Of a stretch of 64,000 nucleotides of DNA, positions 1,500 through 51,026 are shown piece after piece. How positions within the stretch are numbered: position 1 is the first letter of the stretch; each line of letters begins with the position of its first letter. Made by a program: the position numbers and the translations under genes. This stretch comes from a virus, in the IMG/VR virus record IMGVR_UViG_3300045988_101835; one strand, 5' to 3'. The notes under the pieces were generated by a model, which was not told where the DNA came from, did no database searches, and saw nothing but the letters and a program-made list of their open reading frames with translations.

Positions 1500-2762
1500 G
1501 GTAAGGCGATTACATACAATTTTACACAACTGTTTGCAATAAACGTAAAATAATTGTAACTTGCTGCCATGCATAAAGTATTCAAATATCGCATTTATCC
1601 GAACAAGGCTCAGCAGTCCTTGCTCCAAGTGACGTTTGGATGTTGCCGCTTCGTGTATAATAAAACACTTGATATTAGGAAGACGGCTTACGAAACCGAC
1701 AAGACGAAGCTTAGTAAGTTTGACCTCATCAAGAGATTAAAGCCACTTAAAGATGAATTCCCGTGGCTGCGCGACGTGCCGCATGTATGCTTGCCGCAAG
1801 CCGTCTACAACATGGATAGAGCTTACCAGAACTTCTTTAAGTCCGACAAAGGCTATCCGAAGTTCAAGACGAAGCATCGCAGCCGCAAATCTTGCAAATT
1901 CCCGTATCCGTTCTGTGATGTGCTTCAAGAGCAAGCGCGGCTCAAGTTTTCTAAATTAGGTTTAGTCAAGTACAAGAAAGATCGGGAGTTCGTTGGTACT
2001 TTACGACACATTGTGGTTACGCAAGACAGCGATGGTAAGTACTACGCTTCATGTTTGGTGGAGACTACTACGGAGATTCCGGAACCGCAACCTGTCGATG
2101 CCAGTACTACGGTCGGTATCGACTTAGGACTTAAAGACTTTATCGTCACGTCGGACGGACACAAGATACCTAATCCACGTTTCTACGCTACTATCGACCG
2201 TCGTATAGCACGCTTGCAGAAGCACGAAGCTAGAAAGACAAAAGGGTCTAAGCGCCGTGCACACATCCGGCTGAAGATTAACAAACTCTATATTAAGAAA
2301 CGCAATTTAATTAAAAATTATATTTACCATGTTGCCAAGACGTTACTGCGTGAAAGCCAAACGCTAGTAATGGAAGACCTTAATATTGTCGGCATGGTTA
2401 AGAATCATAAGTTAGCTAAATCCATTCAGAACATTTGTTGGGGCGAGCTTCGCAGAGTGTTAGAGTATAAGTCGAAGTGGCTTGGTCACAATCTTATTTT
2501 CATAGATCGTTGGGCGCCGAGTACAAAGACTTGTAGTTGTTGTGGTTTTCACAATTCTACGTTAACACTTTCAGATCGTTCATGGATGTGTCCGGGTTGC
2601 GGTACACAACACGACAGAGATGTTAATGCCGCGCTTAACATCAAGCGTATGGGTTTAGAAACATTACTGCCCGCGGTGAGCGGGTTTGACGGACGTGGAG
2701 AGGTCGGTTACGGCTTCGACGAAGCGTCAATATGTGCGAGTTATTAATTGTATATAATCACC
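1500..2762 (+). mobile_element. TnpB-only IS element, copy 1 (about 1263 bp)
   Basis: The left end GGTAAGGCGATTACATACAAT and right end ATTGTATATAATCACC form an imperfect inverted repeat. Homologous copies lie at 39472, 49771 and 60104. Base composition differs from the phage backbone. Confidence 0.7.
1569..2747 (+). CDS. tnpB: TnpB (IS200/IS605-family OrfB, RuvC-type RNA-guided nuclease)
   Basis: FKYRIYPNKAQ..FGCCRFVYN N-terminus. RuvC residues are VGIDLG (D), VMEDLN (E) and HDRDVNAALN (D). Zinc ribbon is CSCCGF..CPGCG. Confidence 0.9.
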   Translation: MHKVFKYRIYPNKAQQSLLQVTFGCCRFVYNKTLDIRKTAYETDKTKLSKFDLIKRLKPLKDEFPWLRDVPHVCLPQAVYNMDRAYQNFFKSDKGYPKFKTKHRSRKSCKFPYPFCDVLQEQARLKFSKLGLVKYKKDREFVGTLRHIVVTQDSDGKYYASCLVETTTEIPEPQPVDASTTVGIDLGLKDFIVTSDGHKIPNPRFYATIDRRIARLQKHEARKTKGSKRRAHIRLKINKLYIKKRNLIKNYIYHVAKTLLRESQTLVMEDLNIVGMVKNHKLAKSIQNICWGELRRVLEYKSKWLGHNLIFIDRWAPSTKTCSCCGFHNSTLTLSDRSWMCPGCGTQHDRDVNAALNIKRMGLETLLPAVSGFDGRGEVGYGFDEASICASY

Positions 2763-6050: not shown

Positions 6051-7621
6051 TGCAGAGGGCAGAGGTTGACATACAGGGTGCGGGTGTTGATGCTTTTCTG
6101 GCTCTTTCCGCAGAGACGCTGCAGGTCTGGGCTGCGGCTATGGCCCAACTGTCTTCGGAGGATGTTGCGGATGCAGAGCTGCCTGCCATGTCTCCGTCTG
6201 CCTTACGTGCTTACATTGAGTCTCATGACATAGATGATGTTGCGGATGATGCCGAGCGTTCTGCTTCTACGGATGATGACGAGGATGGCGGTGGGGTTCT
6301 AGGCTGGCTTCTGCGTCGTGCGGGGAGTGCTGCTATTCCTGCGTCGGTTAAGGCGGGCCTTGCTCTTTTGGATATTGTGATGTCTGTAGGTCAGGCTGCC
6401 TTGTGGGGTTTTCTCCTGTTTGGCGGCTTCAAATTGATCCACCGGGCATCTATCGCCAAGTTAAAGATCGACGGCTCAGAATCTGATTTTACGACGGAGT
6501 GGGCTTTGGTTCCTACGTGGTTTTCGGAACTTGCCACCGGGTCCGGGGGTGGTGCAGTTGTTCGAGGTACTCGGGCTTACTCGGAGGTTCAGGGCTATGT
6601 TGGTTCTGAGTTATATAAGCTTCTTGTCGGTGAGGAGTACGCCCGTGAGGATAAGGGTGTTGTTTCTACCGAGTATGGTATTATTGACTCACTTCATAGT
6701 AGACCTCACTCTGGTCTTGATTTGCGTATTGCTGGAGGCACTCCTTTGCGGTCTTTAGGTGATGGTGTTGTGACTCGCGTCTGGGAGGGCGGTTCAGGCG
6801 GCAAATCGCTCCAGATTACGCTTGATAACGGCATAGTGATAGGCATGGCCCACCTGCAGGACAATTCGCTTGTTCCGGTGGGCACACGTGTCCGCAAAGG
6901 GGACGTTGTAGCCGTTTCCGGTAATACGGGTACACATACTACTGGTGCTCATCTTCATATTACTTTCCGGCGTGCTTCGAATATGGGTTCGACGGTTAAT
7001 CCTGCTTCCATCATGCCGGAGTTAGGTATTTCAGTTCCTATGGCACAGACATCTTCTTTTCCGGCAGATAGACAGGCTCAGGGTTATTCTATTACTCTAG
7101 GTTCCTCCTTAGCTAAGAATGCTTATAATTTGACAGGCTTGCAGGCTTTCGGCACACAGTGGAAAGGCAAGTCGGGTACGGTTCAAGCTTCTGGGGGTCG
7201 TGTTTTCGAGCGCTTCACTTCTCCGGAGTGGAGTCTTCGTGCTACTATGGGTACCCTTTTGAACTACCAGACTCGGAAGGACATTTCCCGGTCTGGGGGT
7301 GCTTGGACTACCATTGGTGATATTTCCCGTATGTATGTAGGCGGAGGTTACACGAACCGTCCGGCTTACGAAGGGGATGATATTGTTCAGTATGCCCGTA
7401 ACATTTCGGAGTTTTCCGGTTATGGTGTTGATGAGCGTATTGATGTTCGCCGTCCGGAGGTCATTGAGAAGCTCACACAGGCTATTGCCCGTCAGGAGTC
7501 TTTTTCGATTGTTTCGGATACGGCTATTAAGCAGGTTCGTGCTGTTGCTTTCAATGACTTCTCGTCGGCAGTGAATAAGCAGGATGTTTCGGGGCTTAGT
7601 TCCAACTATCAGAAGTTTTGA
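6050..7621 (+). CDS. Tail-associated peptidoglycan hydrolase with M23 peptidase domain
   Basis: HSGLDL (HxxxD) and GNTGTHTTGAHLH (HxH) LytM/M23 motifs, plus an N-terminal TM segment. TAATG overlap with the previous gene. Confidence 0.75.
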   Translation: MQRAEVDIQGAGVDAFLALSAETLQVWAAAMAQLSSEDVADAELPAMSPSALRAYIESHDIDDVADDAERSASTDDDEDGGGVLGWLLRRAGSAAIPASVKAGLALLDIVMSVGQAALWGFLLFGGFKLIHRASIAKLKIDGSESDFTTEWALVPTWFSELATGSGGGAVVRGTRAYSEVQGYVGSELYKLLVGEEYAREDKGVVSTEYGIIDSLHSRPHSGLDLRIAGGTPLRSLGDGVVTRVWEGGSGGKSLQITLDNGIVIGMAHLQDNSLVPVGTRVRKGDVVAVSGNTGTHTTGAHLHITFRRASNMGSTVNPASIMPELGISVPMAQTSSFPADRQAQGYSITLGSSLAKNAYNLTGLQAFGTQWKGKSGTVQASGGRVFERFTSPEWSLRATMGTLLNYQTRKDISRSGGAWTTIGDISRMYVGGGYTNRPAYEGDDIVQYARNISEFSGYGVDERIDVRRPEVIEKLTQAIARQESFSIVSDTAIKQVRAVAFNDFSSAVNKQDVSGLSSNYQKF

Positions 7622-20067: not shown

Positions 20068-20107
20068 CATTATATTTTTTGCGGTTACCTGTGTTGTATG
20101 CATTTAA

Positions 20108-20180
20108 CGGGCGTGAAGAGGTCGGTTGTGGCTTCGACGAAGCGTCAATATGTGCAAGTTATTAATTGTATATACTCACC
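20108..20180 (+). mobile_element. Solo right end of the TnpB element family (orphan omega-RNA-like 3' module)
   Basis: cgggcgtgaagaggtcggttgtggcttcgacgaagcgtcaatatgtgcaagttattaattgtatatactcacc aligns with the last roughly 73 nt of the four full copies. It retains the GAGGTCG-gttg-TGGCTTC hairpin. Confidence 0.7.
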
Positions 20181-20197
20181 TTTTAAAATAGTATTTT

Positions 20198-20635: not shown

Positions 20636-20667
20636 TTTGGATTTATAATTTTAATTATCTACTTTTG
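20636..20667 (+). promoter_or_regulatory. Bacteroides-type promoter (-33 TTTG / -7 TActTTTG)
   Basis: TTTG at 20636-20639, 20-nt spacer, TAnnTTTG at 20660-20667. Member of a five-copy family sharing tTAATTTAACTTTt. Confidence 0.6.
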
Positions 20668-22391: not shown

Positions 22392-22545
22392 TCTTGAGGC
22401 TATCGCTACGGCGTCGGGAGACGTTTCGGAGCTGAAGGCGGGTATTGACTTGATCATGTCGCTTCGCAAGGAGTTCGGCTTCTCGGAGGTTGATCTGGAG
22501 TCCTTCGTTCGGTCATCTAAGACGCAGGATCGGGTCGAGGGTTAG
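22195..22545 (+). CDS. Hypothetical coiled-coil protein
   Basis: 116-aa ATG-initiated ORF with an acidic, helical composition. Confidence 0.5.
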   Translation: MEKSVKMLLDYKNQKLLDSSEVSDRDVCAAVSKTDLSLQQSLLETYVEYLDAQERLRVLKSSYPLDLEAIATASGDVSELKAGIDLIMSLRKEFGFSEVDLESFVRSSKTQDRVEG

Positions 22546-22705
22546 TTTTCGCCATTGCGCTTGTAGGCTTCAGTCATATGTAACTTGGTAAAATCCGTAT
22601 GCGATAAAATTAGCCATTCTAAAGTTAAGGGACAGGCTATCGGGTTGCTTGCATACTTACGAGTGCTTGCGCCGCGTCAACGACCAAGTAGGAGATGCGG
22701 TTTTT

Positions 22706-22791
22706 GCTCGGATGGTGAAATAGGTATACACGCCGGATTTAAGCTCCTGTGATCAGCAATGGTCGTGCGGGTTCGATTCCCGCTCCGAGTA
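22706..22791 (+). tRNA. tRNA-Leu (anticodon UAA), type II
   Basis: Acceptor GCTCGGA/TCCGAGT (G1-U72). Anticodon loop TTTAAGC. Long variable arm GATCA-gcaa-TGGTC. T arm GCGGG-TTCGATT-CCCGC. Discriminator A. No encoded CCA. Confidence 0.8.
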
Positions 22792-22811
22792 CTTTTTTTT
22801 TGCAACAAAGA

Positions 22812-22843
22812 TTTGCAACTTTAAATTAACTTTTTTATCTTTG
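22812..22843 (+). promoter_or_regulatory. Bacteroides-type promoter (-33 TTTG / -7 TAtcTTTG)
   Basis: TTTG at 22812-22815, 20-nt spacer, TAnnTTTG at 22836-22843. It sits upstream of a small ORF and the tRNA/RNA island. Confidence 0.6.
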
Positions 22844-22867
22844 CATCAAGTAAATACTTGTGATGGT

Positions 22868-23116
22868 ATGCTCAGAATGATTCATAGTTGGGTTAAGGTG
22901 CTTCGTGGCCTTCGTATTCGGGTCAGTGCGGGTTCTTTGCTCTTGCTCAGTTCAGCATCCCCTATTGCTGTGGGGTCTCGAGTGTGGCATTCGGACTATG
23001 GTATCGGTGTGGTGCGTATTGTTGGGACGTGTGAGTATGTTGTTAGTTTCGAAGCTGGTTTTGAGAGTTCCACGTACAAGATGTATTGCTGCAGGGTTCT
23101 CTGTTCTTTGGGTTAA
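22868..23116 (+). CDS. Small protein with Tudor/DUF3553-like GxRVxHxxyGxGxV motif
   Basis: 82 aa. VGSRVWHSDYGIGVVRIVG...VVSFEAG resembles the small beta-barrel found at UvrD/PcrA C-termini. Confidence 0.4.
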   Translation: MLRMIHSWVKVLRGLRIRVSAGSLLLLSSASPIAVGSRVWHSDYGIGVVRIVGTCEYVVSFEAGFESSTYKMYCCRVLCSLG

Positions 23117-23125
23117 TTTACATTT

Positions 23126-23209
23126 GCCGTCTTGTCGGAATTGGTAGACGAGAAGGTCTCAAAAACCTTTGTCCTTTAGGACGTCCGGGTTCGATTCCCG
23201 GAGACGGTA
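23126..23209 (+). tRNA. tRNA-Leu (anticodon CAA), type II
   Basis: Acceptor GCCGTCT/AGACGGT (G1-U72). Anticodon stem AAGGT/ACCTT with loop CTCAAAA. Variable arm GTCC-ttta-GGAC. T arm CCGGG-TTCGATT-CCCGG. Discriminator A. Confidence 0.8.
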
Positions 23210-23795
23210 CGACTTCCCGACGTGGTTGCCGGGGGTCCCCAGCCTTGAAATGGTAGGTGCTGGGTTTTATATTGTGCACATTCCGGTTTTAGCTTGGTTT
23301 ATCCGTCCGGGTGTGGGTGCGTTGCTAGAGGAGTCTTTCCTACCGTAGGTTCCGTTTGCATAGCTGAATATCAGGCGTGGCGGCTTGGAGTAGCACGGCA
23401 ACAGCTAAGTATGGGTTCTTTTGTTTTCGCTGCAGTTAACGGACATATGGTTAGTCCTTGCTGGGTTTCTTATAAAGGGATTTCTCAGGGGTAGTGCAGT
23501 GTTTAACGAAGTTTGTTTATGGGGCATTATCCGTTCGCCACTATGCTTTGGCTATAAGGATTCATACTTTTTATACGTCTATGGTTTGTGTTCCTTGACA
23601 TAGTGAAGACGGCACCGTCGAGAGTGATACTCTTTCGCTTTTAACCTTTGGAGCTCACTCATCTTTTTCTTCAGGCAATTCCTTGTGCATGTTCTGGATT
23701 TAGCCTGTCACTCTCACTTGTTAGTGGCGTGTGCTGTCTTCACCTTTTTTTTTCAGTGGGACCTGCCTGAAAGTAGAGTAGGGTGTATGTGAATC

Positions 23796-23820
23796 AGGGG
23801 TTCGATTCCTTATACCGACT
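23796..23820 (+). other. Orphan tRNA-like T-arm and 3' acceptor fragment
   Basis: AGGGG-TTCGATT-CCTTA followed by TACCGAC. I could not find a matching 5' acceptor or D/anticodon arm upstream. Confidence 0.25.
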
Positions 23821-23878
23821 AAGTTCGTCGCTGGTTGGTGCTGGTTTGCAATATAGTGCCTTCGGGGTCCTTCTTGTT

Positions 23879-23966
23879 GGAGAGTTGGCGGAGTTGGTCT
23901 AACGCGCCTGCCTACTAATCAGGTGTCCGGGTTTCCGGGCCGGGAGTTCGAATCTCTCACTCTCCG
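23879..23966 (+). tRNA. tRNA-Ser with unusual anticodon ACU (A34), type II
   Basis: Acceptor GGAGAGT/ACTCTCC with discriminator G. 3-bp D stem. Anticodon stem CCTGC/TCAGG (31-39 C-U mismatch) with loop CTACTAA. Variable arm CCGG-gttt-CCGG. T arm GGGAG-TTCGAAT-CTCTC. Confidence 0.7.
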
Positions 23967-24236
23967 CGCCGAGTTGTTTCCGGTTGTGCTCTGAATTTAA
24001 CTGGCGTCGTTCCCGAACGTATCGGGGGATGGTTGAGGTGATACCATCAGAAATCACCTGCGGGCAGACGCGTATTTGTAGGAGTTGACTTGCGTCTATA
24101 TCAGCAGGCTGCGGTTAAGATGTATGAGTTCACCGCTACGGTTGACTGTATTAAAACTCTATTCATCGGTGCTTGTTAAGCGCGCAATGACAGGCATGAC
24201 GTCCCTATCTGCAGTGGCGTGCGTAGGGCTTTTTAG

Positions 24237-24321
24237 GAAAGTTGGCAGAGTGGTCGATTGCGCTGGTCTAGAAAACCAGTGATCCTTTAGGATTCGGGAG
24301 TTCGAATCTCTCACTTTCCGC
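24237..24321 (+). tRNA. tRNA-Ser with unusual anticodon AGA (A34), type II
   Basis: Acceptor GGAAAGT/ACTTTCC with discriminator G. Perfect anticodon stem CTGGT/ACCAG with loop CTAGAAA. Variable arm ATCC-ttta-GGAT. The T arm is identical to the other Ser tRNA. Confidence 0.75.
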
Positions 24322-24422
24322 CGCCCCTCCGGTTGTTAGACCTAATTGGAAGTCGACTAAGATTAGGTTGAGGCAACAGTTGTCTCACTTGCGTTTGCTT
24401 AAGTGTGGCAATGAGAGGGTCC

Positions 24423-24594
24423 CATAGAGGGGTATACTCTTAAGATGTCGATGTAGGCTCTTGTGATGACGTCGGCAATCCTACGTAGATGCTTAGGAGA
24501 GGATACCGGATGGATTCGGTTCCGCCTTTCGGAGGTTGCAAACGATGATTGGTATGGGCTGATGTATTCCGAGGTTCGAGTCCTCCCTCTATAC
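24423..24594 (+). ncRNA. tRNA-like element (acceptor plus T arm) enclosing a roughly 100-nt insert
   Basis: 5' CATAGAG pairs with 3' CTCTATA (six Watson-Crick pairs plus C1/A72). T arm is CGAGG-TTCGAGT-CCTCC. The interior has extra helices, e.g. ATGTAGG/CCTACGT. No standard D or anticodon arm was recognised. Confidence 0.3.
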
Positions 24595-25007
24595 AATTTA
24601 AGCTTGGTTCTTTTTTACATGGAGGGTTTCCTGCATTTTCTAGGCTGGCCCGAAGCCTACTTCGAAGAAACCACCGACGCGCAAGGTGAGGGGCTACGGA
24701 GGATAGTAGACGGGGTGAAATTCCGCCGTCGAAGCCGATGGAACCGGATGCAGATACGGATAAGGCGTGCGTTCCTTTTGCGAGGTTCGGCGTTTCTGCT
24801 ACGCTCGTATTCGAGTACGGTACCTTCGAGGTACCGTTTCTTGCCATCCCCTTTTTGGCTGGTTAGGGTGAAGATCAGTCCGGTGCTGGTACGAGAAGTC
24901 AGCAGCAGCCCGTGACGGCTATATTGTTGCGGCGCGGTGAAGCTGTCCGATGTGGGAAATTCGGAGATCAGCGGGATGTCCTATTCTAGATGTGGGTGTC
25001 TGACATT

Positions 25008-25034
25008 AGACGGGTGATTCCCGTCTTTTTTTTT
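25008..25034 (+). terminator. Intrinsic terminator closing the RNA island
   Basis: AGACGGG-tgatt-CCCGTCT followed by T9. Confidence 0.8.
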
Positions 25035-25043
25035 ATGCATTTA

Positions 25044-25075
25044 TTTGGAGTTTTAATTTAACTTTTCTATATTTG
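25044..25075 (+). promoter_or_regulatory. Bacteroides-type promoter (-33 TTTG / -7 TAtaTTTG)
   Basis: TTTG at 25044-25047, 20-nt spacer, TAnnTTTG at 25068-25075. Confidence 0.6.
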
Positions 25076-25104
25076 TGTGGTGCTACTTTAATCGGTGATT
25101 TACT

Positions 25105-25539
25105 ATGGTGTACGAGGATATGGTTGACTTGATGCGGACCTTCGATTCCAACGCTGTGGACGTTCCTCAGCTTGGCATCTTCTGGTTCTTGCCGGAGTCG
25201 GGTTCTTTGTTTGAGGTCCATACGGAGGACTTTGACAGTTCTAAGGTGGTCAATGGTCATTTGTCTTATGGCAAGCTTCACAAGAATTGGTGGACTAAGG
25301 CTCGCATGTCTCGGTCGAAGGGTTCCAACCCTATTTACCAGACTGATTATACTATGATTCCTCGAGGTAGGGTTTCGTTCGACGATGGCAGGTTTGTGGT
25401 GTATGTCGGAAGTTGGTATGCCCCTTATGAGTCTCTGCTTCGTGATCTTATTGTGGATGAGTTCAACATCCCGTATGATTTCGAGTTCTGTGTTAAGGAG
25501 CACTGGGATATCGGTCATGGTTTCAATGAATTGCTGTAG
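25105..25539 (+). CDS. Hypothetical early protein
   Basis: 144-aa ATG-initiated ORF, first gene after the promoter. Confidence 0.55.
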   Translation: MVYEDMVDLMRTFDSNAVDVPQLGIFWFLPESGSLFEVHTEDFDSSKVVNGHLSYGKLHKNWWTKARMSRSKGSNPIYQTDYTMIPRGRVSFDDGRFVVYVGSWYAPYESLLRDLIVDEFNIPYDFEFCVKEHWDIGHGFNELL

Positions 25540-25542
25540 GTT

Positions 25543-25755
25543 ATGGGAAAGTCAGGTCTTTATAGTTTAGCGTTGGTGGTTAGTGCACTTTCTGCTGGTC
25601 AGGATTTGGGTATGTTTTCTGCCCGCGCCGGGGGTTGCTCGTCTCAGTGTACGGGTGTCGGAAATGATACGCATCCGGTTGGTCACTTTAAACCTAAGAA
25701 GAAGCCGTTTGGTGCTCGGCGCCAGAGTAAGAAGGAGCGTTCTCGATCAAGGTAG
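25543..25755 (+). CDS. Small protein with signal-like N-terminus and basic tail
   Basis: 70 aa. It starts 4 nt after the previous stop. Confidence 0.35.
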   Translation: MGKSGLYSLALVVSALSAGQDLGMFSARAGGCSSQCTGVGNDTHPVGHFKPKKKPFGARRQSKKERSRSR

Positions 25756-25790
25756 GTAGTACGTATAGGGTACAAAAATCTGTTTTTATT

Positions 25791-26102
25791 ATGCGTTTCG
25801 TTCCTAGTGCAGTTGATGCATTGAGTTCCTACGTGAGCGGTCTTGATGCCTTGCGCCATCCGCAGTTTGTTATCGATAAGATCGAGGTGGTTGAGCTTAT
25901 GTTGCCTGAGCTTGCTGAGTTGCATGCTGTTCGTCCTAGCGAGGCTGAGGGTGCATGGGGGTCTGCGTGCTATGACTTGAGTACTACCATTGAGTTTCTT
26001 GGGAGTCTCAATCCAGACTTTGTGGATGTTGTATCAGGTCCGGAGAGCGTTCGAGTGCTTATTCGTCTTCATGAGCTGTTGTCTGCTGTGTTTGTAGATT
26101 AG
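25791..26102 (+). CDS. Hypothetical protein
   Basis: 103-aa ORF. Confidence 0.5.
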   Translation: MRFVPSAVDALSSYVSGLDALRHPQFVIDKIEVVELMLPELAELHAVRPSEAEGAWGSACYDLSTTIEFLGSLNPDFVDVVSGPESVRVLIRLHELLSAVFVD

Positions 26103-33787: not shown

Positions 33788-35779
33788 ATGTTGTGGGGCA
33801 CTTTTAATGGGTACAAGGTTGGCTTGGTTCAGAGTCTGTCGGATTTGGATTACATCCGGGCAGATTTGCATGCCAATATAGTGGCTGGTTTGGATTCGGA
33901 GACGACGAGCTTATCTTTTGTTCACGGTCGAGTGGTAGGGGTATGTATCGCTACGGGTAAGACTTACAGCAAGGATGACTACTGTGGTTATTACATTCCG
34001 ATTCGTCATGTGGGCTATCACGCCAATCTTCCGGTTGACCTTGTTATTGCTTTCGTGCAGTATGTCGTCGATAATTATATGACGATGTGGTGGAACCGGA
34101 GTTTCGACTTTTCTATGTTGGAGCTTGACGGGTTCAAGGCACCTTTTGTTGGTAAGACTCATGACGTCCAGTTCATGGCGCATGAGATTTTCAATGAGCG
34201 TTATCCTAAGCTGAAGGTCTTTGCTAAGCGTCTTTTTGGGTTTAAGACTATCGACTTCGAGGATAATAATGCGGTTAATGGTAACTTCGGCTCACTCGAC
34301 CCGGAGGTCTCTTTCATCTATGCTGCTGCCGACCCTCTCATCACGACACTGTGTGGTCTCCGTATTTGGAGTGACTATCCTCATATTCGTCAAATTTACC
34401 CGCTGGATAACGAGTCCGGTGAGGCTGTTCGTCGCTTGGCTAAGGCGGATATCCTTCTTGATTATGATTTCTTGGATCAGGAGGTCATTCGCACTTCTGC
34501 CCGCATGGAGGATGTCCGGCAGCGTATCTATCAGCTTGTGGGCTACGTTTTCAACATCAGTAGTGAGGATGACAAGGCGGATGCCTTGAGCCGCTTTGTC
34601 ACGTTGACGGTCCGTACTAAGAGTGGCAAGTTCAAGACGGATAAGAATGTCTTGGCGACGATAGATCATCCGTTAGCTAAGCTTATGCTGGAGTATAATG
34701 CCTTGAGCACTTACTTGAAGTCTTTCGTTTCCAAGATGGTTTCGTGGCGTCATCGTCAGATTCCGGTTCATATTAATTATAACCTTGTCGTGGCGTTGAC
34801 GGGTCGTATGAGTAGCTCCGGGTCGGAGGGTAATGACTTCTACGTTCCTTTTAATGGCCAGAACTGTGTTCGTGGTTCTAATACTACAGTTTTCACTCGT
34901 TCCGGGTCCAAGTTGATTTCGGAGGTTGTTGTTGGTGACGAGGTTTGGGATGGCGATGCTTTTCGGCGCGTGTCTGCGGTTTTGGATCAGGGTGTGCGTG
35001 AGATTTACCGTTTGACTTTGGAGGATGGTCGTTTCTTGGACGCGACATCAGATCACCCGGTTCTCACGGCTTCGGGGTTCCACGAGGTTTCTACGTTACT
35101 CGGGGTCGATGTTTTGGTGAGTGAGAACCCTCATGTTTTCCTGACTGGTGTAGATTGTGGTCCCGCTAGGTACTTATGTAGGGTTGTGTCGATCCACCCT
35201 ATTGGCTATGATCGTGTTTATGACATTACGGTCGATGTATCAGAGCGTTTTGTGGCCAACGGTATTATAGTTCATAATTGCCCGAAGGTTTCTTTGAAGA
35301 TGTATTTGCATACAGATCCTCTTATAGGCTACTGTTTGAAGCATGAGGCGGAGGGTGCTGTGTGTGATGAGTCGGGCAAGCCTATTAAGTATAAGACGAA
35401 GGGAGGACTTCGTGATGCCTTCTTGGCCAACCCGCCGGGGGAGGATGACTGGGTAATGGTTGGCAACGATTATTGTATTCATCCGGATACATTAGTATCG
35501 ACACCTTCGGGAGATGTTCGAATAGGTGATATGGTTGGTTGTGAGTTCGAGGTTTCTACGCCTTATGGTCCTTGCGTTGCTTCTAATGTTCACCATACTG
35601 GTCGTCGCAAGCAGTATCGTATAGAGTTGTCGGACGGTGCGGTTCTGGTTTGCTCTCCAGATCATCGTTTGTGGGTGTGTCGTGATGACGTAGATATGTG
35701 GGTTAAGGCTTCTGAGCTTTTGAGTAGTGATTATATTTACACTCAGTCTGATGTTACTTATCCGGAGATTGTGAGCTAG
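33788..35779 (+). CDS. Family-A DNA polymerase, N-terminal gene (exo domain, palm start, intein 1, IntN of split intein)
   Basis: GLDSETTSL (ExoI), ALTGRMSSS and FNGQN (PNLQN-like), ..VGNDY (motif A Asp). Ends at TAG 35777-35779 inside intein 2. Confidence 0.85.
   Translation: MLWGTFNGYKVGLVQSLSDLDYIRADLHANIVAGLDSETTSLSFVHGRVVGVCIATGKTYSKDDYCGYYIPIRHVGYHANLPVDLVIAFVQYVVDNYMTMWWNRSFDFSMLELDGFKAPFVGKTHDVQFMAHEIFNERYPKLKVFAKRLFGFKTIDFEDNNAVNGNFGSLDPEVSFIYAAADPLITTLCGLRIWSDYPHIRQIYPLDNESGEAVRRLAKADILLDYDFLDQEVIRTSARMEDVRQRIYQLVGYVFNISSEDDKADALSRFVTLTVRTKSGKFKTDKNVLATIDHPLAKLMLEYNALSTYLKSFVSKMVSWRHRQIPVHINYNLVVALTGRMSSSGSEGNDFYVPFNGQNCVRGSNTTVFTRSGSKLISEVVVGDEVWDGDAFRRVSAVLDQGVREIYRLTLEDGRFLDATSDHPVLTASGFHEVSTLLGVDVLVSENPHVFLTGVDCGPARYLCRVVSIHPIGYDRVYDITVDVSERFVANGIIVHNCPKVSLKMYLHTDPLIGYCLKHEAEGAVCDESGKPIKYKTKGGLRDAFLANPPGEDDWVMVGNDYCIHPDTLVSTPSGDVRIGDMVGCEFEVSTPYGPCVASNVHHTGRRKQYRIELSDGAVLVCSPDHRLWVCRDDVDMWVKASELLSSDYIYTQSDVTYPEIVS
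34865..35278 (+). mobile_element. Mini-intein 1 (138 aa) in the PNLQN|IP-like motif
   Basis: Starts CVRGSNTTVFTRSGSKLISEVVVGDEV. Block B is TSDHPVL. Ends FVANGIIVHN followed by C. Confidence 0.8.
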
Positions 35780-35899
35780 TGTATGGGACGCGCTTCTAAT
35801 ATAAAATCCATTTCGGTATTACAGGATGAAGTTGACATGATTGACTTCTCTGTTGCGGGTGCTCATTGCTACTATGCCAATGGTATGTTGGTCCATAAC
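35474..35899 (+). mobile_element. Split intein 2 in motif A (IntN 35474-35776, TAG, TGT, IntC 35783-35899)
   Basis: IntN (101 aa) starts CIHPDTLVSTPSGDVRIGDMV and contains SPDHRLW. IntC (39 aa) is MGRASNIKSISVLQDEVDMIDFSVAGAHCYYANGMLVHN, followed by C. Confidence 0.7.
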
Positions 35900-38707
35900 T
35901 GCTCTGAGGAAATCGCCCTTGTAGCTAACATGTCCCGTGAGGAGGGTTTCTTGTATCCGCTGCGTCATGATCTCGATGTCCATATGTACGTTGCGGAGAC
36001 GCGCTTCCATGTTTCGGACCCTGAGTTTCGTGATAAGTCTAAAGCTGTCTCGTTCGGTAAGATTTACGGTGGTGGTCCTACGATGATCGCTAACCGACTT
36101 GGTATTTCGAAGCAGGAGGCCAATAAGATCATCTATGACTACGATACGGGTATGCCTGTTTTTGCTAGGTGGCAGAAGGCTTTGCAGAAGCAGGCAAAAC
36201 GTACGGGTTTTGCTAAGACGTTCTTTGGGCGCACTATTTACTTGGCTCGGTGGTTTAATTCTCCGGATAACGGATTGCGCGCTTATGCTGACCGAGTTGC
36301 TCTCAACAGTCCAATTCAGGGTCCCACGCCCCCTAACACTCTGATTTTGACCACTTTAGGCTATGTTCCTATTAAGCATTTATATACCTTAGATGTTGCA
36401 GGGCAGCTTGCTCCATATGGTGTTAAGTGTTGGAATGGTGTTCGATGGTGCGATTTTCATGTTGTTGATGCGGGGTTAGGTGATATCCTTCGTTTTAAGT
36501 TCAAGCGTGGCAACTATGTTGACGTTGACGTTCGCCATCAGTTTAAGGTTTGGACTTCGGATGGGTGTGTTTTTGAGGATGCTACTAAGTTGTCGGTTGG
36601 GGATCGTGTTGCGGGGTCTTTGTGCCGTCGCCTTGAGTTCCCGGCACTGACGTTCTGTTGTTCTTCACAGTCGCGGTTGAAGGGTCTGCTTATCTCTCAT
36701 TCTCCCCGTACCCTTTCCTACGAGGATAGCGTGACTTTGATGTGGTGGGTCGGTTATGCTTTAGGTGATGGTAACTTTAGTACGCCTAATGCTATTCGGT
36801 TTACATTAGGGGCTACGGAGACTTTCCGGTATGACGATGCTTCGGCTTTCTTTCCGTCTATTGGTTGTACGGTTGGTAAGTTGAATCATTGTACGGCAGA
36901 TATGCCGGGGCGTAAGGGTGAGTGTTACACGTTCGTTGTGTATGGTGTCGATGTTATGCGGTGCTTGCGGCGCTTGGGTCTTGATTTTCGTTGGCGTCAT
37001 CACACTAAGCGCATTCCGTGGCGACTGTGTTGTTCGTCTATTGCCCAGCGCAAGGCTTTGGTTGATGGATTGTTTGCTTCAGATGGCTGTAAGACAGAGG
37101 AACAGTTCATGTGGCATATGTGCCAGTCGGACATTCTTCGTGACTTGCAGCGGTTGCTTCGGACTTTAGGGTTTGATAGTACTTTGTATGCTGCGCCAGA
37201 TGGTAAGTCCTATCGCTTGGTTGTGTGTGCGACTCAGGATTTCGCTCGGTTTATGGGTTATCCTTTGAAGGAGCAAGCGGGTCGTATTGGTCCGGGTCGC
37301 TGGAATGATCGTCGGATGGTTCCGTCGGTTTTGTGCCAGCGGTTTGTCTCTTGGCAGCAATCGCACGGAGGTCCGTCGCCTGATCTGCCCTCTAAGCGTC
37401 GCCAGTCGGATATGGCATTAATGAGTCGCCTTCGTCATGGTGGTTCTGTTTCGTTTTCGACTTTCGAGAGCTTGGCTTCGGATTATGGCTATACGGAGTA
37501 TCAGACGTGGGATGACTATCTGGAGGCTCAGGAGATCGTTGATATTGTTTCTTTGCCGCCGGAGAACTGCTATTGCCTTTCGTTGGATGATGAAAGCCAT
37601 TGCTACGACACGGATGGTCTTATTTCTCATAATTGTTTACCTCGGTCCTTGTATTCGCCGTCGCAGGATGGTAAGGTTTATTCTCCGTGGCAGTCGTTCG
37701 TCGGCCACCGTATGACTTTCCAGACTCGGTCGGACGGCGCACGTGTTGGCGTTCCTACGTTCCGGGGTGAGCACGACCTTCATGTTGCTTTGTTCGATAC
37801 GGGTGACTTCTGTGTTTGCAATCTGGGTCATAAGTTCGTTAAGTATGGTACGGATCGCGTCTTGCTTGGTTTGGATGAGATAGGTACTGCGCCTGTTGCT
37901 TTGATTCCGCCTATGCGCAAGAGTAAGTGGGGCTGGTTGAAGGGCTTGTTTAGTAGCCATAAGTGGACTTTGGAGTCGCTTCTTGCGCATGGTAAGATGG
38001 GCCGTGACATCCGCACGGACGATTGGGCTGTCTGCTGGTGTATGCTGAAGGCATTTATGACGCGAAAACGGGTCCATACGCGGTCGATGTTATCCGCAAT
38101 GATCCTACGGTCCATCTGCGATCTTTTCGGCTGGAATTTGGTCTACGATTTGCGCCATTCGGTTGTTGATGATTATGCTTTCAAGTTACGGTGGGGTCGT
38201 CGGCGTAAGGGTCACGCTATTTTCGCCACGGAACTTGGAATTCGGGATAACGTTATTTCTCCGTCCATGTCTTCGGGCCTTCAGACTTACCCGTTGTGTG
38301 GCTTCATTCATAAGAACACGGGTGGTGACTTGATTCGCCGTGACTTGGTTAAGTTCGAGCGTTTGAATGATCTGCTCCCGGAGTGGCGTGAGAACGTCCG
38401 CTTCGTGGTTACGGTTCACGATGAGGTCCAGTTCCGTGTTCGCCGTAAGTATTTGTTCAAGGCTATTCCTATCATCCAGAAGGTCATGAACTTCTGGCCT
38501 AAGAATTTTGAGACTCCGGTTGTTGTTGAGCCGGGTGTTGGTTTCCGCTGGGGCGGTGAGCTTGATATTGACGCTGTTCTGGATGACGGTCGTATTGTTC
38601 CTAAAGGTTACATGCCGCCGCCGGAGTACTTCGAGGGCCACGAGGTCTATTGGCTTCGTTCGTGGAAGGAGGAAGAGGAGAAGAAGCGTGGTTTGTCTAA
38701 GAAGTGA
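35783..38707 (+). CDS. Family-A DNA polymerase, C-terminal gene (IntC, motifs A-C, inteins 3 and 4)
   Basis: CSEEIALVANMS (rest of motif A), KAVSFGKIYGGG (motif B), NSPIQG / TGGDLIRR, VTVHDEVQF (motif C). Same frame as the N-terminal gene. Confidence 0.85.
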   Translation: MGRASNIKSISVLQDEVDMIDFSVAGAHCYYANGMLVHNCSEEIALVANMSREEGFLYPLRHDLDVHMYVAETRFHVSDPEFRDKSKAVSFGKIYGGGPTMIANRLGISKQEANKIIYDYDTGMPVFARWQKALQKQAKRTGFAKTFFGRTIYLARWFNSPDNGLRAYADRVALNSPIQGPTPPNTLILTTLGYVPIKHLYTLDVAGQLAPYGVKCWNGVRWCDFHVVDAGLGDILRFKFKRGNYVDVDVRHQFKVWTSDGCVFEDATKLSVGDRVAGSLCRRLEFPALTFCCSSQSRLKGLLISHSPRTLSYEDSVTLMWWVGYALGDGNFSTPNAIRFTLGATETFRYDDASAFFPSIGCTVGKLNHCTADMPGRKGECYTFVVYGVDVMRCLRRLGLDFRWRHHTKRIPWRLCCSSIAQRKALVDGLFASDGCKTEEQFMWHMCQSDILRDLQRLLRTLGFDSTLYAAPDGKSYRLVVCATQDFARFMGYPLKEQAGRIGPGRWNDRRMVPSVLCQRFVSWQQSHGGPSPDLPSKRRQSDMALMSRLRHGGSVSFSTFESLASDYGYTEYQTWDDYLEAQEIVDIVSLPPENCYCLSLDDESHCYDTDGLISHNCLPRSLYSPSQDGKVYSPWQSFVGHRMTFQTRSDGARVGVPTFRGEHDLHVALFDTGDFCVCNLGHKFVKYGTDRVLLGLDEIGTAPVALIPPMRKSKWGWLKGLFSSHKWTLESLLAHGKMGRDIRTDDWAVCWCMLKAFMTRKRVHTRSMLSAMILRSICDLFGWNLVYDLRHSVVDDYAFKLRWGRRRKGHAIFATELGIRDNVISPSMSSGLQTYPLCGFIHKNTGGDLIRRDLVKFERLNDLLPEWRENVRFVVTVHDEVQFRVRRKYLFKAIPIIQKVMNFWPKNFETPVVVEPGVGFRWGGELDIDAVLDDGRIVPKGYMPPPEYFEGHEVYWLRSWKEEEEKKRGLSKK
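36323..37633 (+). mobile_element. Intein 3 (437 aa) with LAGLIDADG homing endonuclease; Pro at position 1
   Basis: Inserted after PIQG. Block A-like PTPPNTLILTTLGYVPIKHL, block B VDVRHQF. LAGLIDADG motifs WVGYALGDGNF and LVDGLFASDG. Block F CYCLSL, ending DGLISHN followed by C. Confidence 0.65.
37634..38317 (+). mobile_element. Intein 4 (228 aa) directly abutting intein 3
   Basis: Starts CLPRSLYSPSQDGKVYSPW. Block B is CNLGHKFV. Degenerate LAGLIDADG-like GWLKGLFSS. Ends CGFIHKN followed by T of the extein TGGDLI. Confidence 0.55.
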
Positions 38708-39471: not shown

Positions 39472-40729
39472 GGTAATCATATACAATTTTATTCTGCCGT
39501 TTGTAATAGACGTAAAATAATTATAACTTGCAGCCATGAAGAAGACATTCAAATATCGCATCTACCCGAACAAAGCCCAGCAGGCTTTGTTACAGGCGAC
39601 GTTTGGATGCTGCCGCTTCGTTTACAACAAAACGCTTGATATTAGGAAGACGGCTTACGAGACCGACAAGATGAAGCTTAGTAAGTTCGATTGCATCAAT
39701 CGGATGACTGCGTTGAAGGATGAGTATACGTGGTTGCGTGCCGTTCCTGCGGTTTGCTTGGTTCAGGCTGTTGACAACATGGATACAGCCTACCAAAACT
39801 TCTTCAAATCTGGTAAAGGTTATCCGAAGTTTAAGTCGAAGCATCGTAGCCGTAAGTCCTGTAAGTTTATGGTGCCTAAGTGTGTTGTATTGCAAGATAT
39901 TAGTCGTTTAAAGCTTTCTAAGTTAGGGTTAGTCAAGTACAAGAAAGACCGGGAGTTCGTTGGCGCTTTGCGTCACATTGTGGTTACACAAGAAAACGAT
40001 GGTAAGTACTACGCGTCGTGCTTGGTGGAGACGGGCGTTGAAGCACCTAAGCCAAAGCCCGTTGATGATAGCACAACGGTCGGCATTGACTTGGGGCTGA
40101 AAGACTTTATCGTCACGTCCGACGGGCGCAAGATACCTAACCCGCGCTTTTATGCTACTATTGACCGACGCATAGCTAGGTTACAGAAGCATGAAGCACG
40201 AAAGACGAAAGGCTCGAAGCGTCGTGCCCGCATTCGCTTAAAGATTAACAAACTTTATATCAAGAAGCAAAACTTAATTAAGAATTATATTTACCATGCC
40301 GTCAAGACGTTACTGCGTGAGAGTCAAACGATAGTAATGGAGAATCTTAATGTTGGCGGCATGGTTAAGAATCATAGTTTAGCTAAATCCATACAGAACA
40401 TTTGCTGGGGTGAACTTCGCAGAGTGTTAGAGTATAAGTCTCAATGGCTTGGTCATAACCTTATTTTCATAGATCGTTGGGCACCGAGTACGAAGACTTG
40501 TAGTTGTTGCGGCTTTAAGAATGATATATTAACACTTTCAGATCGTTCGTGGACATGTCCGGGTTGTGGTACGCATCACGACAGAGATGTTAACGCTGCC
40601 CTCAACATTAAGCGTATGGGTTTAGAAAAGTTATTGCCTACGGTGAGTGGGTTCGACGGACGTGGAGAGATCGGTTACGATCTCGACGAAGCGTCAATAT
40701 GTGCAAGTTATTAATTGTATATAATCACC
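39472..40729 (+). mobile_element. TnpB-only IS element, copy 2 (about 1258 bp)
   Basis: Left end GGTAATCATATACAATTTT matches the reverse complement of the right end, GGTGATTATATACAATTAA, at about 16 of 18 positions. It sits between a terminator and an early promoter. Confidence 0.7.
39536..40714 (+). CDS. tnpB: TnpB (RuvC-type RNA-guided nuclease)
   Basis: 392 aa with the same motif set as copy 1 (VGIDLG, VMENLN, CSCCGF..CPGCG, HDRDVNAALN). Confidence 0.9.
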   Translation: MKKTFKYRIYPNKAQQALLQATFGCCRFVYNKTLDIRKTAYETDKMKLSKFDCINRMTALKDEYTWLRAVPAVCLVQAVDNMDTAYQNFFKSGKGYPKFKSKHRSRKSCKFMVPKCVVLQDISRLKLSKLGLVKYKKDREFVGALRHIVVTQENDGKYYASCLVETGVEAPKPKPVDDSTTVGIDLGLKDFIVTSDGRKIPNPRFYATIDRRIARLQKHEARKTKGSKRRARIRLKINKLYIKKQNLIKNYIYHAVKTLLRESQTIVMENLNVGGMVKNHSLAKSIQNICWGELRRVLEYKSQWLGHNLIFIDRWAPSTKTCSCCGFKNDILTLSDRSWTCPGCGTHHDRDVNAALNIKRMGLEKLLPTVSGFDGRGEIGYDLDEASICASY

Positions 40730-49770: not shown

Positions 49771-51026
49771 GGTAATTATTTACTTTTTCATTTTCATTTG
49801 CAATAAATGTAAAATAATTGTAACTTGCAGTCGTGAAGAAGGCATTTAAATATCGCATTTATCCGAACAAGGCCCAGCAGGCTTTGTTGCAGGCGACGTT
49901 TGGGTGCTGTCGCTTCGTGTATAATAAAACGCTAGACATCAGGAAGACGACGTATGAGAGGGATAAGACGCAGCTTAGCAAGTTTGACTTAACCAAGAAG
50001 ATACCGCTGCTTAAAGAAGAGTTTCCGTGGTTGCGCGACGTTCCGGCGGTATGCTTGCCGCAAGCAGTCGGCGATATGGATGATGCCTATCAGAAGTTCT
50101 TTAAGTCCGGTAATGGTTATCCTAAGTTTAAGACGAAGCATCGCAGCCGTAAGTCTTGTCGTTTTCCGGGCCAGAGTTGTGCGGTATTGCAAGACATTAG
50201 TCGTTTAAAGTTTCATAAGTTAGGCTTAGTCAAGTATAAGAAGGATCGTGAGTTCGTCGGTACTTTACGTCACATTGTGGTTACACAGGAAAGTGACGGT
50301 AAGTACTACGCTTCGTGTGTAGTAGAGACGGGTGTCGAAGCACCTAAGCCACAATCCGCAGAAGCTAGTACGACGGTCGGTATTGACTTAGGACTCAAAG
50401 ACTTTATCGTTACGTCGGACGGACGCAAGATAGCTAACCCGCGGTTCTACGCTACTATTGACCGTCGTATAGCTCGGTTGCAGAAGCACGAAGTTAGAAA
50501 GACGAAAGGGTCTAAGCGTCGTGCACGCATCCGATTGAAAATTAACAAACTTTATGTTAAGAAACGCAACTTAATCAAAAATTATATTTACCATGTTGCC
50601 AAGACGTTACTGCGTGAAAGCCAAACGTTAGTAATGGAAAATCTCAATATTGTCGGCATGGTTAAGAATCATAGTTTAGCTAAATCCATCCAGAATATTT
50701 GTTGGGGTGAACTGCGTAGAGTGTTGGAGTACAAGTCTCAATGGCTTGGCCACAATCTCATCCTCATAGATCGTTGGGCACCGAGTACGAAGACTTGTAG
50801 TTGTTGCGGTTTCCACAATTCTATGTTGACGCTTTCAGATCGTTCGTGGGTTTGTCCGGGTTGCGGTACGCATCACGACAGAGACGTCAATGCTGCGATT
50901 AATATTAAGCGTATGGGTTTAGAGTCATTATTGCCTGCGGTGGGCGGGTTTGACGGACGTGGAGAGGTTGGTTACAACTTCGACGAGGCGTCAATATGTA
51001 CAGTGTAGAAATTGTATGCATTCACC
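49771..51026 (+). mobile_element. TnpB-only IS element, copy 3 (about 1256 bp, most diverged ends)
   Basis: Left end GGTAATTATTTAC..., right end ..AATTGTATGCATTCACC. It begins 5 nt after the stop of the upstream structural gene. Confidence 0.65.
49833..51008 (+). CDS. tnpB: TnpB (GTG start, altered C-terminal residues ..ASICTV)
   Basis: 391 aa. The RuvC D/E/D residues and zinc ribbon are intact. Confidence 0.85.
   Translation: MKKAFKYRIYPNKAQQALLQATFGCCRFVYNKTLDIRKTTYERDKTQLSKFDLTKKIPLLKEEFPWLRDVPAVCLPQAVGDMDDAYQKFFKSGNGYPKFKTKHRSRKSCRFPGQSCAVLQDISRLKFHKLGLVKYKKDREFVGTLRHIVVTQESDGKYYASCVVETGVEAPKPQSAEASTTVGIDLGLKDFIVTSDGRKIANPRFYATIDRRIARLQKHEVRKTKGSKRRARIRLKINKLYVKKRNLIKNYIYHVAKTLLRESQTLVMENLNIVGMVKNHSLAKSIQNICWGELRRVLEYKSQWLGHNLILIDRWAPSTKTCSCCGFHNSMLTLSDRSWVCPGCGTHHDRDVNAAINIKRMGLESLLPAVGGFDGRGEVGYNFDEASICTV

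Follow-up and report, generated by a model that had tools for sequence, protein, structure and literature searches.

The 64,000-nucleotide (nt) stretch of viral DNA analyzed in this study (IMG/VR virus record IMGVR_UViG_3300045988_101835; the whole stretch is referred to as the window) contains an island of transfer RNA (tRNA) genes at positions 22550-25035. Directly behind one of them, tRNA-Leu(CAA), we identified a conserved 372-nt element that appears to encode a new structured RNA (Leu-linked RNA, 23209-23580). The evidence for a new structured RNA is solid, while its distribution is narrow; comparison among related phages establishes that it is conserved and non-coding, to which strand it belongs, how it folds and that it is linked to the tRNA. 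We consider it probable that the region as a whole is a phage tRNA operon whose spacers form a mosaic of separate pieces, the main one being this new non-coding RNA, which would be released as a stable, folded molecule that acts in trans. An earlier reading of the region from its letters alone (the sequence-only reading) had suggested a novel large structured RNA in the spacers. Structured RNA was indeed found, in the form of discrete modules of about 372, about 120 and perhaps about 250 nt and not as a single 2.5-kilobase (kb) RNA. The observation behind the suggestion was largely right and its interpretation partly supported.

A conserved element fused to tRNA-Leu(CAA)

Close relatives with 91-97% nucleotide identity were found in MT839121 (L001) and three IMG/VR contigs (L003-L007; L-numbers denote the contigs of relatives). 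More distant syntenic relatives were found via homologues of the 144-amino acid (aa) protein encoded downstream of the island (about 54% identical) and by DNA-pattern scans. Among the INPHARED phages, matches beyond tRNAs were limited to the 4.5-kb fragment MT839121, and the DnaB-like helicase had no tblastn match. The element was kept in every syntenic relative recovered, amounting to 15 distinct copies in three lineages: lineage W (the window, L001, L003, L007/L020 and L035), lineage C (L021, L024, L027, L029 and L039) and lineage B (L009, L012, L013, L023 and L025). Each genome carried one copy, which was located directly 3' of tRNA-Leu(CAA) in 15 of 15 cases. Nucleotide identity between positions 23103-23468 of the window and L009, L012 and L013 was 70%, while the flanking 144-aa protein was only about 54% identical, and the gene upstream of the tRNA could not be aligned between lineages although 23103-23468 aligned.

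Closer examination of the alignment revealed long invariant blocks alternating with variable stems. The invariant blocks comprise GGGTGCGTTG (23315-23324), CTGAATATC (23364-23372), GGAGTAGCACGGCAA (23387-23401), GGTTCTTTTG (23414-23423), GACATATGGTTAGTCCTTGCTGGGT (23442-23466) and CTATAAG (23552-23558), and the element ends with a conserved U-run (23568-23572). Insertions and deletions (indels) of a single base sit between the invariant blocks, which rules out a reading frame. An open frame kept among relatives, as expected of a protein-coding region, was not found, the indels in the element not being multiples of three.

Loci carrying the element were collected with a pattern scan for GGGTGCGTTG...CTGAATATC, and four of the loci obtained in this way (L036, L037, L038 and L041) were discarded for want of a match to the element profile, which was an nhmmer profile and not a covariance model. 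Searching with nothing but the longest invariant block led back to the same contigs. When the profile was run against the window, no second match, no paralogue and no likeness to the flanks of its TnpB genes was detected. A description of the 372-nt RNA was not found in the literature, which is weak negative evidence only.

Consensus fold and compensatory changes

The RNAalifold consensus of the 372-nt element consists of 82 pairs in 16 helices, with a long-range helix closing the 3' half just before the U-run. Standard pairs occupy 98.4% of the cells, compared to 38-50% when the 3' partners were slid by 1-3 columns. Compensatory changes, in which both sides of a pair had changed, were present in 24 of the 82 pairs and in 0-3 pairs of the slid controls, and the covariation score was reached by none of 500 shuffles. 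Helix 4 occurs in three different, fully paired versions. According to our own count from the pair table, G-U pairs make up about 19% of the paired cells, and because these would be A-C mismatches on the opposite strand, the fold is assigned to the + strand transcript. By its compensatory changes the element qualifies as a structured non-coding RNA.

The same observations bear on the alternative that the element works as DNA, as a replication origin, packaging site or recombination site in the replication module. Such a role would suit its location, with helicase or methyltransferase genes on one side and the DnaB and PolA genes on the other, as well as invariant blocks that a DNA-binding protein could recognize. 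Compensatory variation and many G-U pairs that are valid on the + strand transcript only are, however, not features of a DNA site, nor are the continuity with a tRNA gene and the terminal U-run. Iterons and direct repeats were absent from the element, a TTTGG run being expanded within a loop in L035 alone, and we regard a DNA function as very improbable.

Two further features may serve as leads only. The sequence CAUAUG within block 23442-23466 is invariant, unpaired in the model and self-complementary, and a UAGUC/GACUA tertiary pairing between invariant blocks of the element is possible.

Proposed release of the RNA and its action in cis or in trans

Transcription probably starts from the promoter motif at 22812-22843 and would proceed through the 82-aa gene and tRNA-Leu(CAA) into the 372-nt RNA, which forms a direct 3' extension of the tRNA on the + strand. 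The enzyme that matures the CCA-less 3' end of the tRNA would at the same time create the 5' end of the RNA, while its 3' end could be provided by the U-run (23568-23572) after the closing helix or by the hairpin and run of nine Ts (T9) at 23603-23753 about 170 nt further on. The element seems to close a transcription unit, since a terminator-like hairpin follows it in all three lineages and, in several copies of lineages B and C, a promoter motif comes next. Once released, the RNA would persist in its stable fold and act in trans during infection. A second module (24323-24442) is attached likewise to tRNA-Ser, possibly followed by a third (24644-24890), and the rest of the spacers consists of decayed tRNA genes and near-neutral filler, lost or swapped in relatives partly through the activity of TnpB insertion sequences. 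Its role would be of one kind with those of GOLLD, ROOL and T4 RNAC/RNAD, although for a specifically GOLLD- or ROOL-like action of the 372-nt RNA in trans we rate the chances as somewhat less than even.

Alternatively, the element could act only in cis, as a 3' trailer for the maturation, stability or termination of tRNA-Leu(CAA), in the form of a processing platform or a large terminator or attenuator. The zero spacing between tRNA and element in every copy, the long-range closing helix with the conserved U-run directly behind it, the terminator-like hairpins downstream and the attachment of the second module to tRNA-Ser in the same manner are all in keeping with such a trailer. On the other hand, 16 helices and about 100 invariant unpaired or junction nucleotides go far beyond the requirements of a trailer or terminator, the island's other tRNAs do without one, and tRNA-Ser(TGA) of lineages B and C occurs both with and without the second module. 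Action in cis alone appears rather unlikely to us.

Several points weigh against a stable RNA acting in trans as the explanation of the region. The covariation comes from three lineages only, each covarying pair represents one or two independent events, and the test was not phylogeny-aware. By its minimum free energy (MFE) the 372-nt element does not outdo shuffled sequence (z = +0.81), and the second and third modules are each absent from some relatives and hence dispensable. Members of the family come from a single small clade of phages, represented by 8 metagenome contigs, about 7 IMG/VR contigs and 1 contig of a metagenome-assembled genome (MAG), and its broad biological importance is unproven for this reason. 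Transcription, processing sites, stability and trans action we infer, and a role in cis, be it in tRNA 3' processing or in transcription termination or attenuation, is not separable from one in trans. As regards the folding energy, an element well supported by covariation that scores z = +0.81 indicates that MFE z-scores are uninformative as a test of structure.

Relation to known RNA families

The sequence-only reading had pointed to GOLLD, ROOL, group I introns and transfer-messenger RNA (tmRNA) as families to be searched for. Rfam cmscan was run on the window at gathering thresholds, on 22400-25200 at E <= 10 and on six relatives (L001, L003, L007, L009, L012 and L013) at E <= 1, and neither GOLLD (RF01998) nor ROOL (RF03087) was matched in any of these searches. 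With the covariance-model tests failing, the 372-nt RNA is not a member of the GOLLD or ROOL family, and it matched no other Rfam family in the window or in the six relatives either. In the window at gathering thresholds and in 22400-25200 at E <= 10, group I introns and tmRNA remained without a match as well; all four tRNAs are intact and uninterrupted, and ARAGORN at default settings called no tmRNA. Intron-containing tRNAs, another candidate that had been raised, did not materialize: the intron mode of ARAGORN at default settings returned four ordinary tRNAs (no search for permuted tRNAs was made). The 372-nt RNA is thus neither a group I intron nor a tmRNA, and it is no omega-RNA either (see below).

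A number of calls were rejected. These were the Rfam chance matches to Plastid-psbl-rps4 (antisense of tRNA-Ser), leuA-Halobacteria, sX4 and a tRNA-Sec-like model, a spurious tRNA-His with a 448-nt intron and its 5' half in a non-conserved helix (ARAGORN intron mode at 85%), a spurious Ser tRNA with an 80-nt intron (ARAGORN at lowered thresholds with introns allowed) and an implausible permuted tmRNA spanning the tRNA-Leu genes (ARAGORN at the 80% threshold).

GOLLD and ROOL are found close to the tRNA islands of phages and are in some cases covalently joined to tRNAs (PMC12286853). The Leu-linked RNA resembles them in that they are large, multi-helix non-coding RNAs of phages and prophages, typically beside tRNA islands and of unknown function. 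It differs in size (372 nt compared to about 580 to more than 800 nt), in its constant fusion to the 3' end of one tRNA and in its restriction to one small clade of gut phages. Ornate RNAs of the GOLLD and ROOL kind are characterized by assembly into homo-oligomeric nanocages, for which the sole hint in the Leu-linked RNA is its self-complementary CAUAUG. A bolder proposal would be to see in the 372-nt RNA the founder of a new class of ornate phage RNAs, a covalent tRNA-Leu fusion that acts with or on the tRNA and might sequester, deliver or protect it through self-association via CAUAUG, in parallel to these nanocages and evolutionarily independent of them, with the Ser-linked module as a second "tRNA-tail RNA"; we give this proposal little credence at present.

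RNAC and RNAD of phage T4, also called species 1 and 2 stable RNAs, are encoded among the clustered T4 tRNA genes, and the machinery that processes the tRNAs releases them as well. As small stable phage RNAs of a tRNA cluster they are similar to the Leu-linked RNA, yet they are about 120-140 nt long and belong to other hosts and phage lineages, the comparison being by description only. Their function is still unknown (PMC9697503). Phage tRNA arrays in general share with this island the clustering of tRNAs that fit codon preference, tRNA turnover and degenerate relics, but their ordinary spacers are short, whereas conserved structured RNAs fill defined segments of the spacers here.

The abundance of TnpB insertion sequences raises the alternative that the element derives from them or serves them as an omega-RNA-like guide scaffold. 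The window carries four intact TnpB genes and one remnant, and TnpB elements of the IS200-IS605 type as well as a 166-nt miniature reside inside the island of related genomes, three of these TnpB elements being in contact with the 5' end of a tRNA gene or a short distance upstream of it. The window island itself is free of TnpB sequence, however, and the 372-nt RNA is dissimilar to TnpB flanks: its profile matches nothing else in the window, TnpB 3' regions included. The element adjoins a TnpB gene in no genome, and it is fixed beside tRNA-Leu(CAA) while the insertion sequences vary by genome, which leaves this origin hardly credible.

The most fitting place for the 372-nt RNA is in a new family, restricted to one clade, among the structured phage RNAs associated with tRNA islands, from which it is distinguished by its invariant head-to-tail fusion to one specific tRNA. 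To our knowledge, GOLLD, ROOL and T4 RNAC/RNAD are common and elaborate RNAs for which no function is known, a long-standing puzzle. The Leu-linked RNA adds an independent, compact example from human and animal gut phages with a 5' boundary that coincides exactly with the 3' end of one tRNA, and the second module is another case of this plan. The strict tRNA linkage makes the function of tRNA-island RNAs experimentally tractable, as the fusion can be probed, deleted and imaged. The general importance of so small a family from one clade is uncertain.

Second and third modules

The second module (Ser-linked RNA, 24323-24442) has homologues directly 3' of tRNA-Ser(TGA) in L024 and L021 (BLAST, 79% over 106 nt, E = 9e-21). 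The consensus of the three variants, each fused to the 3' end of a tRNA-Ser, contains 37 pairs, 9 of which are compensatory. The ACCTAAT/ATTAGGT hairpin that the sequence-only reading had singled out is located inside this covarying module. Both conservation and covariation, the lack of which would have spoken against structured RNA in this region, were thus found for 24323-24442 as they were for 23209-23580. The module is dispensable, since it was deleted in the L003 group (window 24322-24422) and lineage B is without it.

The candidate third module (24644-24890) was folded across window 24614-25035 with three sequences about 9% apart, which yielded a consensus of 107 pairs with 99% of the cells paired. 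Five pairs were compensatory, a further 12 were kept despite one-sided change, and three cells were broken. Slid controls gave 0-2 compensatory pairs, and 1 of 500 shuffles reached the observed values. The hairpin ACGGTACC/GGTACCGT, also named in the sequence-only reading, is surrounded by compensatory changes, albeit among three close sequences only. Indels within 24644-24890 break the frame, so this segment is not coding. The support for the third module as a structured RNA is suggestive but weak.

Remaining spacer sequence

The spacers measured 668, 268 and 685 nt, close to the roughly 670, 270 and 700 nt expected. They had been described as rich in helices, and the hairpins named are present in the sequence, but the stability of the segments was similar to that of shuffled sequence (MFE z-scores of +0.81, +1.12, -0.95 and -0.23) except in spacer 1b alone (-2.43). 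Spacers and shuffled sequence being generally indistinguishable by folding energy, comparison with relatives is needed. The AGACGC/GCGTCT hairpin (24078-24109) did not survive such a comparison, being broken in the close relatives L001 and L003.

The long hairpin at 23603-23743 is likely an internal terminator or RNA stabilizer. Its copy in L003 is similarly stable (z = -5.66), and lineages B and C carry a GCCTC...GAGGC hairpin followed by six to eight Ts (T6-8) at the equivalent place, in some cases with a new promoter motif thereafter. In L001 and L035 the hairpin is interrupted by a 166-nt miniature insertion sequence.

Two tRNA-like pieces confirm what had been suspected from the sequence. 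The relic at 23780-23817 consists of AGGGTGTA followed by the degenerate T-arm GGGGTTCGATTCC and received no call from ARAGORN; its counterpart in the alignment with lineages B and C is the 5' end of a more complete tRNA-like gene, an example of which (L013 6843-6945) scored 27.6 bits with the Rfam tRNA model and has a GCCA end. The second piece (24503-24594), which matched the Rfam tRNA-Sec model at 20.2 bits (E = 1.1), is a probable pseudogene. Besides L013 6843-6945, tRNA-like genes of lineages B and C without an ARAGORN call were observed in L009, L016, L019 and L024 (about 620-727) and in L024 (about 1100-1222). Their acceptor stem, D-arm and T-arm are well formed and a GCCA end is encoded, but an insertion of at least about 35 nt occupies the position of the anticodon loop. 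They could represent tRNA-like RNAs of an unusual type or tRNAs that carry small insertions.

Spacer 2 is 88.8-90.3% identical to L003 and L001, and together with most of spacer 1b it diverges from close relatives by 10-14%, similar to the proportion of synonymous differences (pS) in the adjacent gene (0.10-0.26). Folding of the spacer 2 alignment produced no convincing conserved structure, with 2 compensatory pairs compared to 5 that were broken or contained a gap in one or more relatives, and the sequence is apparently neutral. This divergence at about the synonymous rate, the mostly unremarkable MFE z-scores and the two tRNA relics all agree with the alternative that the spacers as a whole are non-functional debris, made up of decayed tRNAs, insertion-sequence scars and recombination filler with helices arising by chance. 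Additional tRNAs (Met, Phe and Ser(TGA)) occupy these positions in relatives, indels follow module boundaries, and TnpB elements or miniatures are present in L001, L003, L007, L024 and L035, as such an origin would predict. Debris describes spacer 2, the larger part of spacer 1b and the pseudo-tRNA region well, but it fails for 23209-23580 and 24323-24442, with their conservation across lineages and their compensatory changes, and is improbable as an account of all the spacers.

The two predicted open reading frames (ORFs) in the third spacer, 24463-24915 (+) and 24440-24847 (-), had been taken for composition artefacts. They are artefacts by our comparison too, because indels of 1 and 2 nt between the window and L003 fall inside them and their translations switch frame. 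Pfam returned no matches for either ORF or for 23209-23580.

Layout of the island

The features of the island are listed in Table 1. ARAGORN detected the four + strand tRNA genes that had been claimed, two for Leu and two for Ser, and each scored 51-54 bits with Rfam. All four are class II tRNAs with long variable arms. Of the Bacteroides-type promoter and the strong terminator proposed from the sequence, the latter was confirmed as a stem-loop with a T9 run and the former was recovered as a predicted motif. This motif (TTTGnnnnTTAAnTTAACTTTnCTATnTTTG) is one of five near-identical + strand copies in the window, with the others at 20636, 25044, 40746 and 56089. The consensus TTTG ... TAnnTTTG is that of the established Bacteroides sigma-ABfr promoters. 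The whole set of tRNAs cannot be placed under this one promoter as had been assumed, given that tRNA-Leu(TAA) lies upstream of the motif, and a layout of one promoter and one terminator is probably too simple because of the stable hairpin and T9 run inside spacer 1.

Table 1. Features of the tRNA island in window coordinates
Feature	Position	Strand	Description
tRNA-Leu(UAA)	22706-22792	+	ARAGORN Leu(TAA); Rfam tRNA 51.2 bits; followed by T9 run
Predicted Bacteroidetes-type promoter motif	22812-22843	+	TTTG ... TAtcTTTG; fits -33/-7 pattern TTTG ... TAnnTTTG
82-aa protein-coding gene	22868-23116	+	Ratio of nonsynonymous to synonymous differences (pN/pS) 0.10-0.31 and no indels against L001, L003, L007 and L035
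tRNA-Leu(CAA)	23126-23210	+	ARAGORN; Rfam tRNA 52.1 bits; CCA not encoded; 3' end abuts structured RNA
372-nt structured RNA (Leu-linked RNA)	23209-23580	+	Starts at last bases of tRNA-Leu(CAA), runs to U-run
Long, very stable hairpin with T9	23603-23753	+	Hairpin 23603-23743, T9 23745-23753; MFE -52.6 compared to -32.3 kcal/mol for shuffles, z = -6.05
Relic of tRNA-like gene	23780-23817	+	Keeps 5' acceptor and T-arm fragments
tRNA-Ser(ACU)	23879-23967	+	ARAGORN Ser(ACT); Rfam tRNA 50.9 bits; also in lineages B and C
Spacer 2	23968-24235	+	Specific to lineage W; z = +1.12; absent from L035
tRNA-Ser(AGA)	24236-24322	+	ARAGORN; Rfam tRNA 54.5 bits
Second module (Ser-linked RNA), about 120 nt	24323-24442	+	Outer stem, two hairpins, trailing hairpin; directly 3' of tRNA-Ser(AGA)
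Degenerate class II tRNA-like element	24503-24594	+	ARAGORN at 80% threshold only: tRNA-?(tgca), 8-nt anticodon loop
Candidate third structured RNA	24644-24890	+	Lineage W only; holds ACGGTACC/GGTACCGT hairpin (24816-24838)
Intrinsic terminator closing the island	25008-25035	+	Stem-loop 25008-25026, 7 bp (5 G-C), then T9; conserved in L003

The region had been regarded as poor in coding potential apart from an 82-aa ORF, and no other long ORF did survive comparison with relatives. To judge from its substitution pattern the 82-aa ORF is a real gene; its product had no Pfam or PHROG matches.

The genetic code of the window is the standard one. Among the Leu codons of its ORFs TTG is the most frequent (38%), and among the Ser codons TCT is the commonest (31%) and AGT reaches 17%, so the tRNAs of the island fit the codons favored by the phage (TTG; TCT and AGT). 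Both Ser tRNAs have an A in the wobble position, which is unusual among bacterial-type tRNAs. They suit the preference for AGT and TCT codons, and Ser(ACU) is kept in all three phage lineages.

The 144-aa protein gene downstream of the island (25105-25539) encodes no Pfam domain. Chromosomal homologues with 42-50% identity were present in Bacteroides and Coprobacter in non-phage contexts, the one in Coprobacter adjoining a REase-ARP gene. As comparisons for the island, the Bacteroides MAG and Coprobacter loci were set aside, being chromosomal, non-syntenic and uninformative.

Variation among relatives and insertion sequences

Close relatives differ from the window by module-sized indels. The segment 22552-22701 (about 150 nt long and located between tRNA-Leu(TAA) and the gene before it) is kept in the L003 group and missing in L001 and L007; in these two and in L035 it is replaced by about 37 unrelated nt. 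In the L003 group, 1.26 kb is inserted at the tRNA-Leu(TAA) 5' end, L001 has a 166-nt insertion at 23630/23631, and L007 carries 1.26 kb in place of 23574-23874. An insertion of about 200 nt at window 24613/24614 was shared by L003 (5313-5510) and L007 (9263-9470). This segment, which is 84% identical between the two, ends in a hairpin and T-run and is missing in the window and L001, could be another dispensable RNA module or reflect a deletion in the window. L035 is without window 23873-25966, including both Ser tRNAs and spacers 2 and 3, and keeps tRNA-Leu(CAA), the 372-nt element and spacer 1b. This close relative (CANQWS010000007.1, 88 kb) was binned in a rabbit-gut Muribaculaceae MAG, which hints at a host range within the Bacteroidales or may be a binning artefact. 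In distant relatives the tRNAs of the island are Leu(TAA), Leu(CAA), Met, Phe, Ser(TGA) and Ser(ACT), and a tRNA-Asp comes behind the gene that follows; given these different sets, tRNA content turns over among these phages.

The four intact TnpB genes of the window (1569-2747, 39536-40714, 49833-51008 and 60168-61346) and the 3' remnant at 20085-20181 reveal a phage genome heavily colonized by one insertion-sequence family. The encoded proteins (IS605 OrfB/Cas12f-like, about 392 aa) share about 83% protein and about 80% nucleotide identity with the copy in L007. No copy was detected by tblastn with TnpB in window 22550-25035, while the large insertions in the islands of relatives are TnpB elements. 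The L007 gene (7336-8511) encodes HTH_OrfB_IS605, OrfB_IS605 and Cas12f1-like TNB domains, the L003 copy is degraded, and the 166-nt insertion of L001 is a miniature derivative of the L003-type element. The tRNA island is therefore a recurrent landing site for TnpB elements and the 166-nt miniature in relatives, with sites at L007 7267-8530, L003 2253-3512, L024 about 1340-1560, L001 3368-3533, L035 about 6381-6546 and L007 9749-9803. The right end of the TnpB element abuts the 5' end of a tRNA gene in L007 and L003, and the remnant in L024 lies about 55 nt upstream of one; the omega-RNA guide of the tRNA-abutting elements would consist of tRNA-gene sequence. In L003 the insertion damaged tRNA-Leu(TAA), for which ARAGORN reported the anticodon "taag" and Rfam only 32 bits.

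Outside the island, the family A DNA polymerase of the window spans two adjacent ORFs (33788-35779 and 35783-38707) with intein-splicing and LAGLIDADG domains, and in relatives an intein is also present in a SNF2-type helicase.

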